This document shows, one piece after another, positions 9,132-63,509 of a DNA stretch of 64,000 nt; the first letter of the stretch is position 1, and each line of letters starts with the position of its first letter. Source of the DNA: Escherichia coli (GTDB lineage Bacteria > Pseudomonadota > Gammaproteobacteria > Enterobacterales > Enterobacteriaceae); assembly GCF_041886205.1 (NCBI RefSeq), contig NZ_CP169029.1. One strand, 5' to 3'. The position numbers were made by a program, and so were the translations under genes. Under the pieces are notes generated by a model. That model did no database searches, was not told where the DNA came from, and was given only the letters and a program-made list of their open reading frames with translations.

Positions 9132-9318
9132 AAAATAGCCAATTGCCGAATTGTTACCTTGCCTGCTATTCCGTTAGCTGTAACACTTCCTCCTGCATTA
9201 TTGGAGAGCCAATATTCAATTACCATAATGTCACCTTATATTCGGAAGTTAATTTCCGCAATAACCCTTTCTCATCAACGACTGTATGTTGAGAGGGTTT
9301 TAAAAATTAAGCTAAATC

Positions 9319-9357
9319 AGTGTATTGGTAGCTAAAAAGCCAGGGGCGGTAGCGTGT
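9319..9357 (+). promoter_or_regulatory. JUMPstart element with ops (RfaH-dependent antitermination) site in wza leader
   Basis: cagtgtattggtagctaaaaagccaggGGCGGTAGcgtg; ops core GGCGGTAG at 9345-9352. Confidence 0.85.
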
Positions 9358-13295: not shown

Positions 13296-13412
13296 CGTTG
13301 TCGGATGCGATGCTGACGCATCTTATCCGACCTACGTTGACGCCGCATCCGGCAAGCAAACCAGCTCCGTAGGCCGGATAAGGCGCTCACGCCGCATCCG
13401 GCAACAGAACCC
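13296..13412. repeat. REP element cluster between wzc and wcaA
   Basis: gtcggatgcgatgctgacgcatcttatccgacctac...gccgcatccggcaa palindromic REP units. Confidence 0.75.
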
Positions 13413-23781: not shown

Positions 23782-23885
<104 letters not shown>

Positions 23886-23972
23886 GAATGCGAAACCGAG
23901 ATGTAAATAACGACAAAAACAAAATTGGCCGTTTCGGTCAGGGCCAACTATTGCCTGAAAAAGGGTAACGAC

Positions 23973-26793: not shown

Positions 26794-28272
26794 ATGAGCT
26801 TACGTGAAAAAACCATCAGCGGCGCGAAGTGGTCGGCGATTGCCACGGTGATCATCATCGGCCTCGGGCTGGTGCAGATGACCGTGCTGGCGCGGATTAT
26901 CGACAACCACCAGTTCGGCCTGCTGACTGTGTCGCTGGTGATTATCGCGCTGGCAGATACGCTTTCTGACTTCGGTATCGCTAACTCGATTATTCAGCGA
27001 AAAGAAATCAGTCACCTTGAACTCACCACGTTGTACTGGCTGAACGTCGGGCTGGGGCTTGTGGTGTGCGTGGCGGTGTTTTTGTTGAGTGATCTCATTG
27101 GTGACGTGCTGAATAACCCGGACCTGGCACCGTTGATTAAAACATTGTCGCTGGCGTTTGTGGTGATCCCCCACGGGCAACAGTTCCGCGCGTTGATGCA
27201 GAAGGAGCTCGAGTTCAACAAAATCGGCATGATCGAAACCAGCGCGGTGCTGGCGGGCTTTACTTTTACGGTGGTTAGCGCCCATTTCTGGCCGCTGGCG
27301 ATGACCGCGATCCTCGGTTATCTGGTCAATAGTGCGGTAAGAACGCTGCTGTTTGGCTACTTTGGCCGCAAAATTTATCGCCCCGGTCTGCACTTCTCGC
27401 TGGTGTCGGTGGCACCGAACTTACGCTTTGGTGCCTGGCTGACGGCGGACAGCATCATCAACTATCTCAACACCAACCTTTCAACGCTGGTGCTGGCGCG
27501 TATTCTCGGCGCGGGCGTGGCCGGGGGATACAACCTGGCGTACAACGTGGCCGTTGTGCCGCCGATGAAGCTGAACCCGATCATCACCCGTGTGTTGTTT
27601 CCGGCATTCGCCAAAATTCAGGACGACACCGAAAAGCTGCGCGTCAACTTCTACAAGCTGCTGTCGGTGGTGGGGATTATTAACTTTCCAGCGCTGCTGG
27701 GGCTGATGGTGGTGTCGAATAACTTCGTACCGCTGGTATTCGGCGAAAAGTGGAACAGCATTATTCCGGTGCTGCAATTGCTGTGTATTGTGGGTCTGCT
27801 GCGCTCCGTGGGTAACCCGATTGGTTCGCTGCTGATGGCGAAAGCGCGGGTCGACATCAGCTTTAAATTCAACGTATTCAAAACCTTTCTGTTTATTCCG
27901 GCGATTGTTATTGGTGGGCAGATGGCGGGCGCAATCGGCGTCACGCTCGGTTTCCTGCTGGTGCAGATTATCAACACCATTCTGAGTTACTTCGTGATGA
28001 TTAAACCGGTTCTTGGTTCCAGTTATCGCCAGTACATCCTGAGTTTGTGGCTGCCGTTTTATCTCTCGCTGCCGACGCTGGTGGTCAGTTATGTGCTGGG
28101 CATTGTGCTGAAAGGGCAACTGGCGCTGGGGATGCTGCTGGCGGTGCAAATAGCCGCGGGCGTGCTGGCGTTTGTGGTGATGATTGTGCTGTCGCGCCAT
28201 CCGCTGGTGGTGGAAGTGAAGCGTCAGTTTTGTCGCAGCGAAAAAATGAAAATGCTTTTACGGGCGGGGTGA
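26794..28272 (+). CDS. wzxC: Colanic acid repeat-unit flippase WzxC
   Basis: 492-aa polytopic membrane ORF immediately after wcaJ. Confidence 0.9.
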   Translation: MSLREKTISGAKWSAIATVIIIGLGLVQMTVLARIIDNHQFGLLTVSLVIIALADTLSDFGIANSIIQRKEISHLELTTLYWLNVGLGLVVCVAVFLLSDLIGDVLNNPDLAPLIKTLSLAFVVIPHGQQFRALMQKELEFNKIGMIETSAVLAGFTFTVVSAHFWPLAMTAILGYLVNSAVRTLLFGYFGRKIYRPGLHFSLVSVAPNLRFGAWLTADSIINYLNTNLSTLVLARILGAGVAGGYNLAYNVAVVPPMKLNPIITRVLFPAFAKIQDDTEKLRVNFYKLLSVVGIINFPALLGLMVVSNNFVPLVFGEKWNSIIPVLQLLCIVGLLRSVGNPIGSLLMAKARVDISFKFNVFKTFLFIPAIVIGGQMAGAIGVTLGFLLVQIINTILSYFVMIKPVLGSSYRQYILSLWLPFYLSLPTLVVSYVLGIVLKGQLALGMLLAVQIAAGVLAFVVMIVLSRHPLVVEVKRQFCRSEKMKMLLRAG

Positions 28273-28299
28273 GTTGTTGTTTTCGGTTCCGACAACGGT

Positions 28300-28790
28300 T
28301 GCCGGGTGCAGCGTAAAACGCCTTATCCATCCTACGGTTCTGTGCTCGGGACCTGTAGGCCTGATAAGACGCGTCAGCGTCGCATCAGGCACTGAATGCC
28401 GGATGCGGCGTGAACGCCTTATCCGGCCTACGGTTCTGTGCTCGGATCTTGTAGGCCTGATAAGACGCGCCAGCGTCGCATCAGGCACTGAATGCCGGAT
28501 GCGGCGTAAAACGCCTTATCCGGCCTACGGTTCTGTGCTCGGGTCTTGTAGGCCTGATAAGACGCGTCAGCGTCGCATCAGGCACTGAATGCCGGATGCG
28601 GCGTGAACGCCTTATCCGGCCTACGGTTCTGTGCTCGGATCTTGTAGGCCTGATAAGACGCGCCAGCGTCGCATCAGGCACTGAATGCCGGATGCGGCGT
28701 GAACGCCTTATCCGGCCTACGGTTCTGTGCTCGGGTCTTGTAGGCCTGATAAGACGCGCCAGCGTCGCATCAGGCAAAAAACGGCAACGA
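28300..28790. repeat. BIME/REP array: about five tandem ~96-bp units of paired REP palindromes
   Basis: unit gccggatgcggcgtgaacgccttatccggcctacggttctgtgctcgg.tcttgtaggcctgataagacgcg.cagcgtcgcatcaggcactgaat recurring with 95-97 bp period (anchors at 28381, 28477, 28574, 28669, 28765). Confidence 0.9.
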
Positions 28791-28836
28791 ACAAAACAAA
28801 CGCAGCCTCACCTGGCATCAAATTTATGAGGAAAAA

Positions 28837-30117
28837 ATGAAATTACTTATTCTGGGCAACCACACTTGCGGCAATCGTGGCGACAGCGCCATCTTGCGTG
28901 GCTTACTTGATGCCATCAACATCCTCAATCCACACGCCGAAGTGGACGTGATGAGCCGCTATCCGGTCAGTTCTTCCTGGCTGCTCAACCGCCCGGTAAT
29001 GGGCGATCCGCTGTTCCTGCAAATGAAACAACACAACAGCGCGGCGGGCGTTGTCGGGCGCGTTAAAAAAGTCCTCCGTCGCCGCTACCAGCATCAGGTA
29101 TTGCTCTCACGCGTCACCGACACTGGCAAGCTGCGTAATATCGCCATCGCCCAGGGATTCACCGACTTCGTGCGCTTGCTGTCAGGTTACGACGCCATTA
29201 TTCAGGTCGGCGGATCGTTTTTTGTCGATCTCTATGGTGTGCCGCAGTTTGAACACGCACTTTGCACGTTTATGGCGAAAAAGCCGCTGTTTATGATTGG
29301 TCACAGCGTCGGTCCCTTCCAGGATGAGCAATTTAACCAACTGGCGAACTACGTTTTTGGTCACTGCGATGCGTTGATCCTGCGCGAATCGGTCAGCCTT
29401 GATTTGATGAAACGCAGCAATATCACCACTGCAAAAGTTGAACATGGCGTCGATACCGCGTGGCTGGTCGATCACCACACAGAAGATTTCACCGCCAGCT
29501 ATGCCGTCCAACACTGGCTGGACGTTGCCGCACAACAGAAAACGGTGGCAATTACCCTGCGCGAACTGGCACCGTTCGACAAACGCCTCGGCACCACTCA
29601 ACAAGCGTATGAAAAAGCCTTTGCCGGGGTGGTCAATCGCATTCTCGACGGAGGCTATCAGGTCATTGCGCTCTCCACCTGTACGGGCATCGACAGCTAT
29701 AACAAAGACGACCGCATGGTAGCGCTCAATCTGCGCCAGCACATCAGCGATCCTGCCCGTTACCACGTAGTGATGGATGAACTCAACGATCTGGAAATGG
29801 GCAAAATTCTCGGGGCCTGTGAACTCACCGTCGGTACGCGCCTGCACTCCGCCATTATCTCGATGAATTTTGCCACTCCGGCAATTGCCATCAACTACGA
29901 ACATAAATCCGCCGGGATTATGCAACAACTGGGGCTGCCAGAGATGGCGATTGATATCCGTCATTTACTGGACGGCAGCTTGCAAGCGATGGTTGCGGAT
30001 ACCTTAGGCCAACTTCCGGCGCTGAACGCGCGACTTAACGAAGCCGTCAGTCGTGAACGTCAGACGGGAATGCAGATGGTGCAATCTGTGCTTGAGCGCA
30101 TCGGGGAGGCGAAATGA
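28837..30117 (+). CDS. wcaK: Colanic acid pyruvyl transferase WcaK
   Basis: 426-aa ORF MKLLILGNHTCGNRGDSAI; polysaccharide pyruvyl transferase family. Confidence 0.88.
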   Translation: MKLLILGNHTCGNRGDSAILRGLLDAINILNPHAEVDVMSRYPVSSSWLLNRPVMGDPLFLQMKQHNSAAGVVGRVKKVLRRRYQHQVLLSRVTDTGKLRNIAIAQGFTDFVRLLSGYDAIIQVGGSFFVDLYGVPQFEHALCTFMAKKPLFMIGHSVGPFQDEQFNQLANYVFGHCDALILRESVSLDLMKRSNITTAKVEHGVDTAWLVDHHTEDFTASYAVQHWLDVAAQQKTVAITLRELAPFDKRLGTTQQAYEKAFAGVVNRILDGGYQVIALSTCTGIDSYNKDDRMVALNLRQHISDPARYHVVMDELNDLEMGKILGACELTVGTRLHSAIISMNFATPAIAINYEHKSAGIMQQLGLPEMAIDIRHLLDGSLQAMVADTLGQLPALNARLNEAVSRERQTGMQMVQSVLERIGEAK

Positions 30118-35028: not shown

Positions 35029-35254
35029 TGAAAATCTGACCGAATGTAACGGTTGATAAGGAAATAATAACGGCAGTGAAAAACTATAGATCAATAAATA
35101 TCACTGCTGTTGAGCGTTTATAATTAACTATGCTACCAATGAATAAATAGTGTGCAGATATGTATTTTTTGTTTGGTAGTCTTGTTTCTCCCTCTGAATA
35201 ATAAGATAATAAACGCTTGGAGATGATTTTTTTAACATGGATTATCATTTCGTA

Positions 35255-35288
35255 CACTGGTAGCGATTAAGCCAGGGGCGGTAGCGTG
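35255..35288 (+). promoter_or_regulatory. JUMPstart/ops element in the O-antigen cluster leader
   Basis: cactggtagcgattaagccaggGGCGGTAGcgtg; ops core at 35277-35284; second copy of the motif seen upstream of wza. Confidence 0.85.
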
Positions 35289-60426: not shown

Positions 60427-60463
60427 ATAAAAAAGCCCCCGGAAGGTGATCTTCCGGGGGCTT
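60427..60463 (-). terminator. his attenuator terminator hairpin
   Basis: aaaaagcccccggaaggtgatcttccgggggcttt: GC-rich stem followed on the minus strand by a U-run, between hisL and hisG. Confidence 0.85.
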
Positions 60464-60525
60464 TCTCATGCGTTCATGCACCACTGGAAGATCTGAATGT
60501 CTTCCAGCACACATCGCCTGAAAGA

Positions 60526-60576
60526 CTAGTCAGGATGATGGTGATGATGGTGGTGTTTAAATTGAACGCGTGTCAT
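60526..60576 (-). CDS. hisL: his operon leader peptide (7 consecutive His codons)
   Basis: Reverse complement reads atgacacgcgttcaatttaaacaccaccatcatcaccatcatcctgactag = MTRVQFKHHHHHHHPD*. Confidence 0.95.
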   Translation of the reverse strand: MTRVQFKHHHHHHHPD

Positions 60577-63243: not shown

Positions 63244-63330
63244 AGAAAAATTATTATGACAAGCCTCTCATTCTCTTGTCATTTCCCCCCCATTTAGGCA
63301 CAATGCGCCGCTGTCAAAAAATGACTAAAA

Positions 63331-63361
63331 ACCGACGTTTCATCAGCGTCGGTTATTTTTT
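63331..63361 (+). terminator. Rho-independent terminator after yeeY
   Basis: accgacgtttcatcagcgtcggt hairpin followed by ttattttttg. Confidence 0.7.
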
Positions 63362-63509
63362 GCTTCAAACCAATCATTCATACCAAGAGGCCGGGCTTCG
63401 TACCGGATAGATATTTACTAAAAATCGACAGTTGTTGTCGCTGAGGAATCCAAAAAAATGGGGCAATTTTTTGCTTACGCGACGGTTATCACCGTAAAGG
63501 AGAATGACC

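Follow-up and report, generated by a model that had tools for sequence, protein, structure and literature searches.

REP elements of Escherichia coli K-12 hold 1-12 palindromes, and those that combine y and z2 REPs in tandem copies, with short linkers and a number that varies among strains, are defined as BIME-2 (the family of Gilson, Bachellier and Hofnung, summarized in Ton-Hoang et al. 2012, PMC3333891). The element described here lies at a locus where both the repeat and its polymorphism are already known. In K-12 MG1655 it is listed under the name REP144 (2118467-2118652) as a tandem-pair REP lying between the genes wzxC and wcaK, and REP sequences in the wcaK-wzxC spacer have been reported to vary in number among O157 strains, with indels at similarity junctions (Iguchi et al. 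2011, PMC3158064). Among experimental models of a combined terminator and stabilizer effect, the best is REP325, the naRNA4 array, a long Y/Z2 BIME-2 between the co-oriented and co-transcribed genes yjdM and yjdN (Qian 2015, PMC4550694). REP325 has six units of ~100 bp with linkers of 17 nt and 11 nt; the gene downstream of it is lowered 8-10 fold and the upstream message is stabilized, transcripts end as a ladder inside the array, and sensitivity to bicyclomycin (Rho) is seen with the full 12-hairpin array only, fragments of 2-4 hairpins lacking it (Harris 2026, bioRxiv 10.64898/2026.03.23.713779). In the same study no role in compacting the nucleoid was seen for REP325 or naRNA4, and REP effects were described as context dependent and often absent. 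Genome-wide, tandem gene pairs with intervening REPs show expression biased to the upstream gene. Within operons, REP hairpins at malE-malF and hisJ-hisQ shield the upstream mRNA from 3' exonucleases (Newbury 1987 and Stern 1988, cited by Iguchi et al.); those sites have one or two REPs, compared with ten in the present array.

We analyzed a 64,000-nucleotide stretch of E. coli DNA (the window), in which an earlier note had described five units of ~96 bp, each of paired REP palindromes, between wzxC and wcaK. Tandem Repeats Finder placed an array at 28300-28776 with a period of 96, 4.9 copies, 95% matches and no indels (score 852); a super-period of 193 bp fitted slightly better (96%), and a 193-bp family was also picked up by a direct-repeat search of the window. 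Together with the consensus matches described below, this bears out the five units, and Pfam and RefSeq annotation agree on the two neighboring genes. All units lie on the plus strand and share one layout: a Y-type REP, a 19-nt linker, a Z2-type REP in inverted orientation and the 5-nt CTGAA. Unit 1 (28300-28396) has a degenerate Y REP at 28300-28335, followed by the linker (28336-28354), the inverted Z2 REP (28355-28391) and CTGAA (28392-28396). In unit 2 (28397-28492) both the Y REP (28397-28431) and the inverted Z2 REP (28451-28487) match their consensus exactly, with the linker at 28432-28450 and CTGAA at 28488-28492. The Y REP of unit 3 (28493-28589) has a loop 1 nt longer (28493-28528), and is followed by the linker at 28529-28547, the inverted Z2 at 28548-28584 and CTGAA at 28585-28589. 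Unit 4 (28590-28685) consists of Y at 28590-28624, linker at 28625-28643, inverted Z2 at 28644-28680 and CTGAA at 28681-28685, and unit 5 (28686-28776) of Y at 28686-28720, linker at 28721-28739 and inverted Z2 at 28740-28776, without the trailing CTGAA.

The Y-type REP of the array measures 35-36 nt (TGCCGGATGCGGCGTGAACGCCTTATCCGGCCTAC), the 19-nt linker reads GGTTCTGTGCTCGGrTCTT and the inverted Z2-type REP, of 37 nt, reads GTAGGCCTGATAAGACGCGyCAGCGTCGCATCAGGCA. Pattern searches were run with the Y, Z1 and Z2 REP consensus sequences. These returned five copies of the inverted Z2 in the array with 0-1 mismatches and three exact copies of the 35-nt Y consensus; two further Y copies both carry a 1-nt loop insertion, the first of them with point changes too. 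The Z1 pattern had no match anywhere in the window, and the IHF consensus (WATCAANNNNTTR) was absent on either strand. Since matches to Y and Z2 alternate in inverted orientation, with neither Z1 nor the IHF consensus, the array is assigned to BIME-2, and a BIME-1 or IHF-site element is ruled out. The BIME/REP identification of the earlier note was right and can be narrowed to this class: on its sequence, the element is an ordinary, already described BIME-2 array of Y and inverted Z2 REPs. It shares with the family the alternating layout, the short linkers, the tandem copies at an extragenic site and the strain-variable number, and differs from it in nothing substantive; the 19-nt linker is specific to the locus, as is usual for BIME-2 linkers.

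REP144 of K-12 MG1655 is the ortholog of this array, with which it shares the flanks, the insertion point, the unit and the type of the first unit. It has two units in a 275-bp spacer, compared with five in 564 bp and an internally duplicated 193-bp block here. REP325 resembles the array in its long Y/Z2 structure between co-oriented genes and has a comparable folding energy per nucleotide; it differs in its linkers, and in the direction of transcription its order is Z2 then inverted Y, the reverse of that seen here. This opposite orientation makes the analogy with REP325 inexact. The earlier note had further called the array unusually long. Its length is borne out, as ten REPs lie near the top of the K-12 range of 1-12; its being unusual is not, as six units occur at the same locus in 4 of 59 sampled E. 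coli genomes and REP325 also has six. Ten REPs are long, but neither unprecedented nor the maximum for the wzxC-wcaK locus.

The placement of the array within the colanic acid operon, also proposed in the earlier note, was correct. The colanic acid genes from wza (9535) to wcaM (32739) all lie on the plus strand, and a JUMPstart/ops element upstream of wza was detected at 9318-9356 on the same strand (Rfam RF01707, 57.3 bits against a gathering score of 35), with an exact match to ops (GGCGGTAGCGTG) at 9345-9356. The ORF at 26794-28272 on the plus strand is wzxC, encoding the colanic acid flippase (Pfam Polysacc_synt, E = 1.2e-70), and that at 28837-30117, also on the plus strand, is wcaK, encoding the colanic acid pyruvyl transferase (PS_pyruv_trans, E = 2.7e-40). 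RefSeq strain GPEC548, 100% identical over the region, is annotated with the same two flanking genes; wcaL follows wcaK with a 4-nt overlap, and wcaM comes next. The array lies ~19 kb downstream of JUMPstart/ops and fills most of the 564-nt wzxC-wcaK spacer. No sigma-70-like promoter was predicted in or around this spacer, and no intrinsic terminator was predicted in 28273-28836, where the REPs are followed by CTGAA or an A-run and not by a U-tract; an internal promoter or intrinsic terminator in the spacer was rejected on these grounds. Because JUMPstart lies upstream, the genes are co-oriented and neither signal was predicted in the spacer, the array is very probably transcribed within a long wza-to-wcaM mRNA from the JUMPstart promoter region.

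To the left of the array, the plus-strand flank at 28273-28299 contains GUUGUUGUUUU (28273-28283) and CGACAACGG (28290-28298), the latter imperfectly repeated at 28782-28790. The right flank (28777-28836, plus strand) consists of the A-run, a pairing segment at 28778-28788, an unstructured leader and the wcaK Shine-Dalgarno sequence GAGG (28828-31). A target-site duplication was considered and rejected: the flanks share an imperfect CGRCAACG, but the filled allele with the array subtracted is 16 nt longer than the empty allele and aligns to it poorly. The first REP begins 27 nt past the wzxC stop codon. Liang, Rudd and Deutscher are said to have found in 2015 that REP-induced ribosome stalling requires a REP ~15 nt or less from the stop codon; at 27 nt that rule is probably inapplicable, and an effect of a stop-proximal REP on translation was set aside.

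The earlier note had proposed a comparison of copy number with other E. coli genomes. A query of 800 nt made up of the two gene flanks only was matched by 4,653 of 5,426 complete genomes, from which a spread sample of 59 informative genomes was classed by the distance between flanks; one representative per class was checked by alignment to the unit consensus, and the remainder were classed by length. The result was a set of discrete classes with 0-6 units, at frequencies that are rough because the sample was ordered by flank-identity ranking: an empty allele with a 71-bp spacer in 7 of the 59 genomes, a boxC-like allele with a 161-bp spacer in 5, a decayed unit in 1, one unit in 7 (including all sampled O157:H7), two units with a 275-bp spacer in 21 (including all sampled K-12 derivatives), three units in 6, four in 3, five in 5 and six in 4 (LF82, Nissle, PMV-1 and one other). 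Among class representatives, all BIME alleles start at spacer position 28 and finish with CATCAGGCA. The array is dispensable, given that empty and boxC-type alleles exist.

The way in which the number of units rose can be read in part from the units themselves. Linkers of both lengths (19 nt and 5 nt) are alike in every unit except for 1-3 substitutions. Units 2 and 4 are 100% identical, unit 5 shares 98.9% identity with each of these two, and the most decayed is unit 1 (88-93% identity). Identity of alternate units, together with the two-unit super-period, shows that a recent duplication of a 193-bp two-unit block gave rise to at least part of the array. A linker-centered 47-nt probe had at most five sites per genome, with a median of one, which indicates that the linker is specific to the locus and that the array grew in place. 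On these grounds, and because all BIME alleles share their start and end positions in the flanks, the array has grown in place, at least partly by duplication of the two-unit 193-bp block. Copy number was uniform within two clones, with two units in the sampled K-12 derivatives and one in the sampled O157:H7, which disfavors fast change of the kind seen in phase variation. Two ST131 genomes had 4 and 5 units, respectively; their wzxC and wcaK protein alleles also differ, so recombination is as likely as slippage to explain the difference. Hypervariability within clones was rejected on the same observations.

The RNA of the spacer is predicted to be far more structured than expected by chance. 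In the sense orientation it had a minimum free energy (MFE) of -300.7 kcal/mol, compared with a shuffle mean of -209 (z = -12.4); the antisense RNA was less stable (-270 kcal/mol). Single Y and Z2 hairpins were each worth about -21 kcal/mol, and the sense RNA is predicted to form about ten very stable hairpins. In the MFE fold, 28273-28283 pairs with 28778-28788 in one stem that closes the whole array, and the final ~50 nt of the spacer, including the wcaK Shine-Dalgarno sequence, are unpaired. The layout is thus that of REP325 in several respects, with ten predicted hairpins in a 564-nt untranslated spacer and JUMPstart upstream. By analogy with that six-unit array, we propose that the hairpins would most likely protect the upstream message against 3'-to-5' exonucleases, and would most likely cause a leaky, partly Rho-dependent loss of read-through into wcaK-wcaL-wcaM. 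Attenuation would be expected to grow with copy number and might be damped by RfaH, and at the level of the DNA the Y REPs probably bind DNA gyrase and are cleaved by it. Modest tuning, not a switch, is the expected outcome. Taken as a whole, we consider it probable that the locus is best explained as a BIME-2 array that grew in place, is co-transcribed with the operon, and acts as a leaky attenuator, decay barrier and gyrase site.

Expression data from K-12, which has the two-unit allele, speak against a strong effect. Induction by colicin M declines smoothly along the operon (wcaJ 4.82, wzxC 4.45, wcaK 4.45, wcaL 3.63, wcaM 2.71), with no step at the wzxC-wcaK spacer, and the basal RNA-seq read count of wcaK (91) exceeds that of wzxC (36). 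Only one listed Rho-binding peak adjoins REP144, and it lies on the antisense strand. The sense RNA is 27.8% C and 29.4% G; not being C-rich, it would be a poor loading site for Rho. The ops element implies that the polymerase is modified by RfaH, and RfaH-modified polymerase should resist Rho. Any function must moreover be dispensable, since a structured element is missing from this position in about one-fifth of the sampled E. coli and in 49 of 77 other species. The role as mRNA stabilizer or partial terminator that the earlier note had suggested agrees with the findings for REP325; it is reasonable by analogy, and would probably be weak for the short alleles. The length polymorphism, with 0-6 steps of ~96 bp each in addition to the empty and boxC alleles, forms a convenient natural allelic series, which could be used to test the recent claim that transcription is attenuated by long REP arrays only.

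To view the junction beyond E. coli, a WcaK probe was used to retrieve 80 loci from species representatives of many genera of the Enterobacteriaceae. The median wzxC-wcaK gap was 30.5 nt, and in 49 of 77 species it was no longer than 45 nt, holding little beyond a Shine-Dalgarno sequence (typically TTTTAAGAGGTCATT); a short spacer is likely the ancestral state. A strongly folded gap of at least 75 nt was present in 21 of 76 species and was occupied by REP, boxC-like or ERIC elements. REP/BIME sequences were found at the junction in E. coli, E. whittamii, Citrobacter amalonaticus and Citrobacter sp. Awk 4; boxC-like elements in Pseudenterobacter timonensis (271 nt, -158 kcal/mol), Pluralibacter, Lelliottia, Enterobacter sp. 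kpr-6, Buttiauxella and others; and an ERIC element in Enterobacteriaceae RIT691. The Phytobacter spacer is boxC-like by eye and was missed by the pattern used. These boxC-like and ERIC repeats are GC-rich and strongly folded, as is the array, and occupy the same junction in other strains and genera; they are unrelated to it in sequence and occur as single or double copies, compared with its five-unit tandem. Gaps of at least 75 nt were much rarer at neighboring junctions, with 3 of 75 species for wcaJ-wzxC, 0 of 80 for wcaK-wcaL (a fixed 4-nt overlap) and 0 of 75 for wcaL-wcaM; the comparison of 21/76 with the pooled 3/230 gave P = 2e-11 (Fisher's exact test), a value that is indicative only because species are not independent. 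On the simplest reading, wzxC-wcaK is the only loose junction of the distal operon, where insertion is tolerated; selection for a structured element there may have contributed but is not required. Within the Enterobacteriaceae, structured repeats have landed repeatedly at this junction, which shows where operons tolerate such elements.

Among the alternatives to an attenuator and decay barrier, the one that survives best is that the array is purely selfish or neutral DNA, amplified by a RAYT-type process or by slippage, with no measurable effect on expression. We hold this to be possible, although we lean against it. Copy number ranges from 0 to 6, with empty and boxC alleles in healthy lineages; it is clonally stable (two in K-12, one in O157:H7), unlike that of a contingency locus; K-12 expression passes across the two-unit allele without a step; and the context dependence and frequent absence of REP effects noted by Harris et al. 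would fit as well. Weighing on the other side is the 480-nt stack of predicted hairpins (z = -12) in a transcribed but untranslated spacer, which is unlikely to go unnoticed by RNases and Rho. The presence of structured repeats at wzxC-wcaK in 21 of 76 species, but at only 3 of 230 neighboring junctions, also speaks against neutrality, but is explained equally well by permissiveness of the site.

It is also conceivable, though in our view unlikely, that the array acts mainly on the DNA, as a strong gyrase site or topological insulator whose action does not depend on transcription, and eases supercoiling in an operon of ~23 kb with many genes for membrane proteins. BIME-2 elements have an excess of gyrase cleavage sites, most of them in y and fewer in z2 REPs; the enrichment is independent of transcription, and the signal rises, instead of falling, when transcription is blocked. 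REPs have been cited as topological insulators (PMC3333891), and four of the Y REPs in the array are well preserved. Cleavage in vivo has, however, been reported for only a subset of BIME-2 elements, and wzxC-wcaK is not among the loci named; the array is also absent from many strains and species. A gyrase site would be compatible with effects at the RNA level, and our preferred reading of a leaky attenuator and decay barrier includes one.

Two further proposals concern the junction itself, and both seem improbable. According to the first, wzxC-wcaK would be a slot selected for structured RNA, to which unrelated repeat families (REP/BIME, boxC-like, ERIC) have been recruited in many enterobacterial lineages, with the number of BIME-2 units in E. 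coli (0-6) as a heritable dial. We give this little credence; if true, the dial would set the wcaK-wcaL-wcaM transcript against that of the upstream genes, and with it how far the colanic acid repeat unit is pyruvylated and completed. According to the second, which we find similarly hard to credit, the REP tract would be a recombination junction that promotes exchange of the neighboring O-antigen and colanic acid segments. The REP-containing indels at wcaK-wzxC described by Iguchi et al. coincide with changes in similarity among O157 strains, and the ST131 pair differs both in unit number (4 and 5) and in wzxC and wcaK protein alleles. The authors of the published link themselves called it speculative, however, and identity between the window and K-12 changes only from 96.9% on the upstream side of the array to 95.5% on the downstream side, too little for a convincing step; a recombination junction between these two genomes was rejected.

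A role for the array as a source of naRNA4-like, nucleoid-associated small RNAs acting with HU is very improbable. Its main attraction is that four Rfam matches to naRNA4 (RF02564), a family derived from the BIME-2 array REP325, scored 78-81.7 bits, above the gathering score of 59.5, at 28358-28428, 28454-28525, 28551-28621 and 28647-28717, each covering one Z2-CTGAA-Y junction. All four fall on the minus strand and run antisense to the operon, with no promoter predicted for them, whereas on the transcribed plus strand the scores were 53.6-55.4 bits, below the threshold. The antisense placement follows from orientation, because REP325 reads Z2 then inverted Y and the present array Y then inverted Z2, and the 2026 re-examination saw no role in nucleoid compaction for either REP325 or naRNA4. 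The matches reflect REP sequence shared between the two arrays and are no sign of a small RNA gene.

The possibility of a CRISPR-like array or of small-protein coding, which the regular spacing and the ORFs of 76-104 codons on both strands might suggest, can be regarded as already refuted, as the linkers are the same in all units bar 1-3 substitutions and leave no unique spacers, the neighbors are colanic acid genes and not cas genes, and the ORFs are translated repeat. Unique, CRISPR-like spacers were what the earlier note had named as evidence against REP copies; they were looked for, and with near-identical linkers the identification stands. The note had also pointed to spurious ORFs at 28274-28588 (plus strand) and 28481-28777 (minus strand). 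Both exist, together with two others at 28596-28829 (plus) and 28258-28488 (minus). Scans of three (28274-28588, 28596-28829 and 28481-28777) gave no Pfam family above threshold, and RefSeq/PGAP annotates none of the four in the identical strain, so they were rejected as coding sequences; the short ORFs across the array are spurious translations of the repeat. Annotation pipelines should ignore both these ORFs and the antisense naRNA4 matches that the array generates.

The array itself matters little, being a textbook repeat at a catalogued locus (REP144) whose polymorphism has been published. What is added here is modest: the series of 0-6 units, the empty and boxC alleles, the explanation of the antisense naRNA4 matches by orientation, and the occupation of the same junction across genera. 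As a minor observation on detection, an inverted-repeat search of the window reported no inverted pairs, because the REP stems are interrupted every 4-8 bp and offer no exact 9-nt seed; the palindromes were visible by RNA folding and by consensus matching.

The wzxC-wcaK junction of the colanic acid operon was surveyed at 80 WcaK-probe loci from Enterobacteriaceae species representatives (L012-L091), in the spacer immediately 5′ to the wcaK match (at locus position 2501 in the majority of them). REP/BIME, boxC-like or ERIC elements were found at this junction in 21 of 76 species, against 3 of 230 cases for the three neighbouring junctions (wcaJ-wzxC, wcaK-wcaL and wcaL-wcaM). Within E. coli, 773 of 5,426 complete genomes gave no megablast match to an 800-nt wzxC/wcaK flank query. 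Two kinds of allele lacking a BIME exist in E. coli at this junction: strain 4621 (L009) has a 71-bp “empty” spacer (locus 401-471) in which the small flank hairpin is retained, while strain UID2404240040 (L008) has a 161-bp spacer (locus 401-561) containing a boxC-like element. The latter also has a different Shine-Dalgarno sequence (TTTTGAGGTCATA) and is similar to what is seen in other genera.

The five-unit BIME-2 array is bordered on both sides by an imperfect direct repeat (CGACAACGG at 28290-28298 and CGGCAACGA at 28782-28790); in the empty allele, one CCGGCAAT stands in its place. This repeat could be the footprint of an insertion, or it could have arisen by chance. Even without its array, the filled allele exceeds the empty one by 16 nt.

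REP sites also occur elsewhere in the window. Matching to the REP consensus placed a one-unit BIME-2 in the manC/cpsB-manB/cpsG spacer (Y REP, 23801-23835; inverted Z2 REP, 23847-23883), directly followed at the start of manB by an Rfam match to the algC RNA motif (23919-23968); this unit corresponds to the REP site that Iguchi 2011 (PMC3158064) places between cpsG and cpsB. The wzc-wcaA spacer holds a single Y-type REP (13369-13403, minus strand; one mismatch to the consensus), at a site that the same study reports to be conserved across all O157 strains.

A supplementary table of Harris 2026 (bioRxiv 10.64898/2026.03.23.713779) includes a peak of Rho binding in vitro (“NusG plus”) at 2118651-2118749 (+) of K-12 NC_000913.3, antisense to the operon. 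The peak overlaps the 3′ end of wzxC and 1 nt of REP144, the two-unit K-12 counterpart of the array, and its equivalent in the window lies at about 28200-28300 (−). An Rfam scan and pattern matching located JUMPstart/ops elements, both with GGCGGTAGCGTG, before wza (9318-9356) and before the O-antigen cluster (35251-35288), and any Rho-dependent effect of the array could be blunted by RfaH-type antitermination. Two ordinary features also came out of the whole-window Rfam scan: a histidine operon leader (131.6 bits) at 60427-60550 on the minus strand, and a match to the sRNA STnc240 (68.2 bits) at 63289-63363 on the plus strand.
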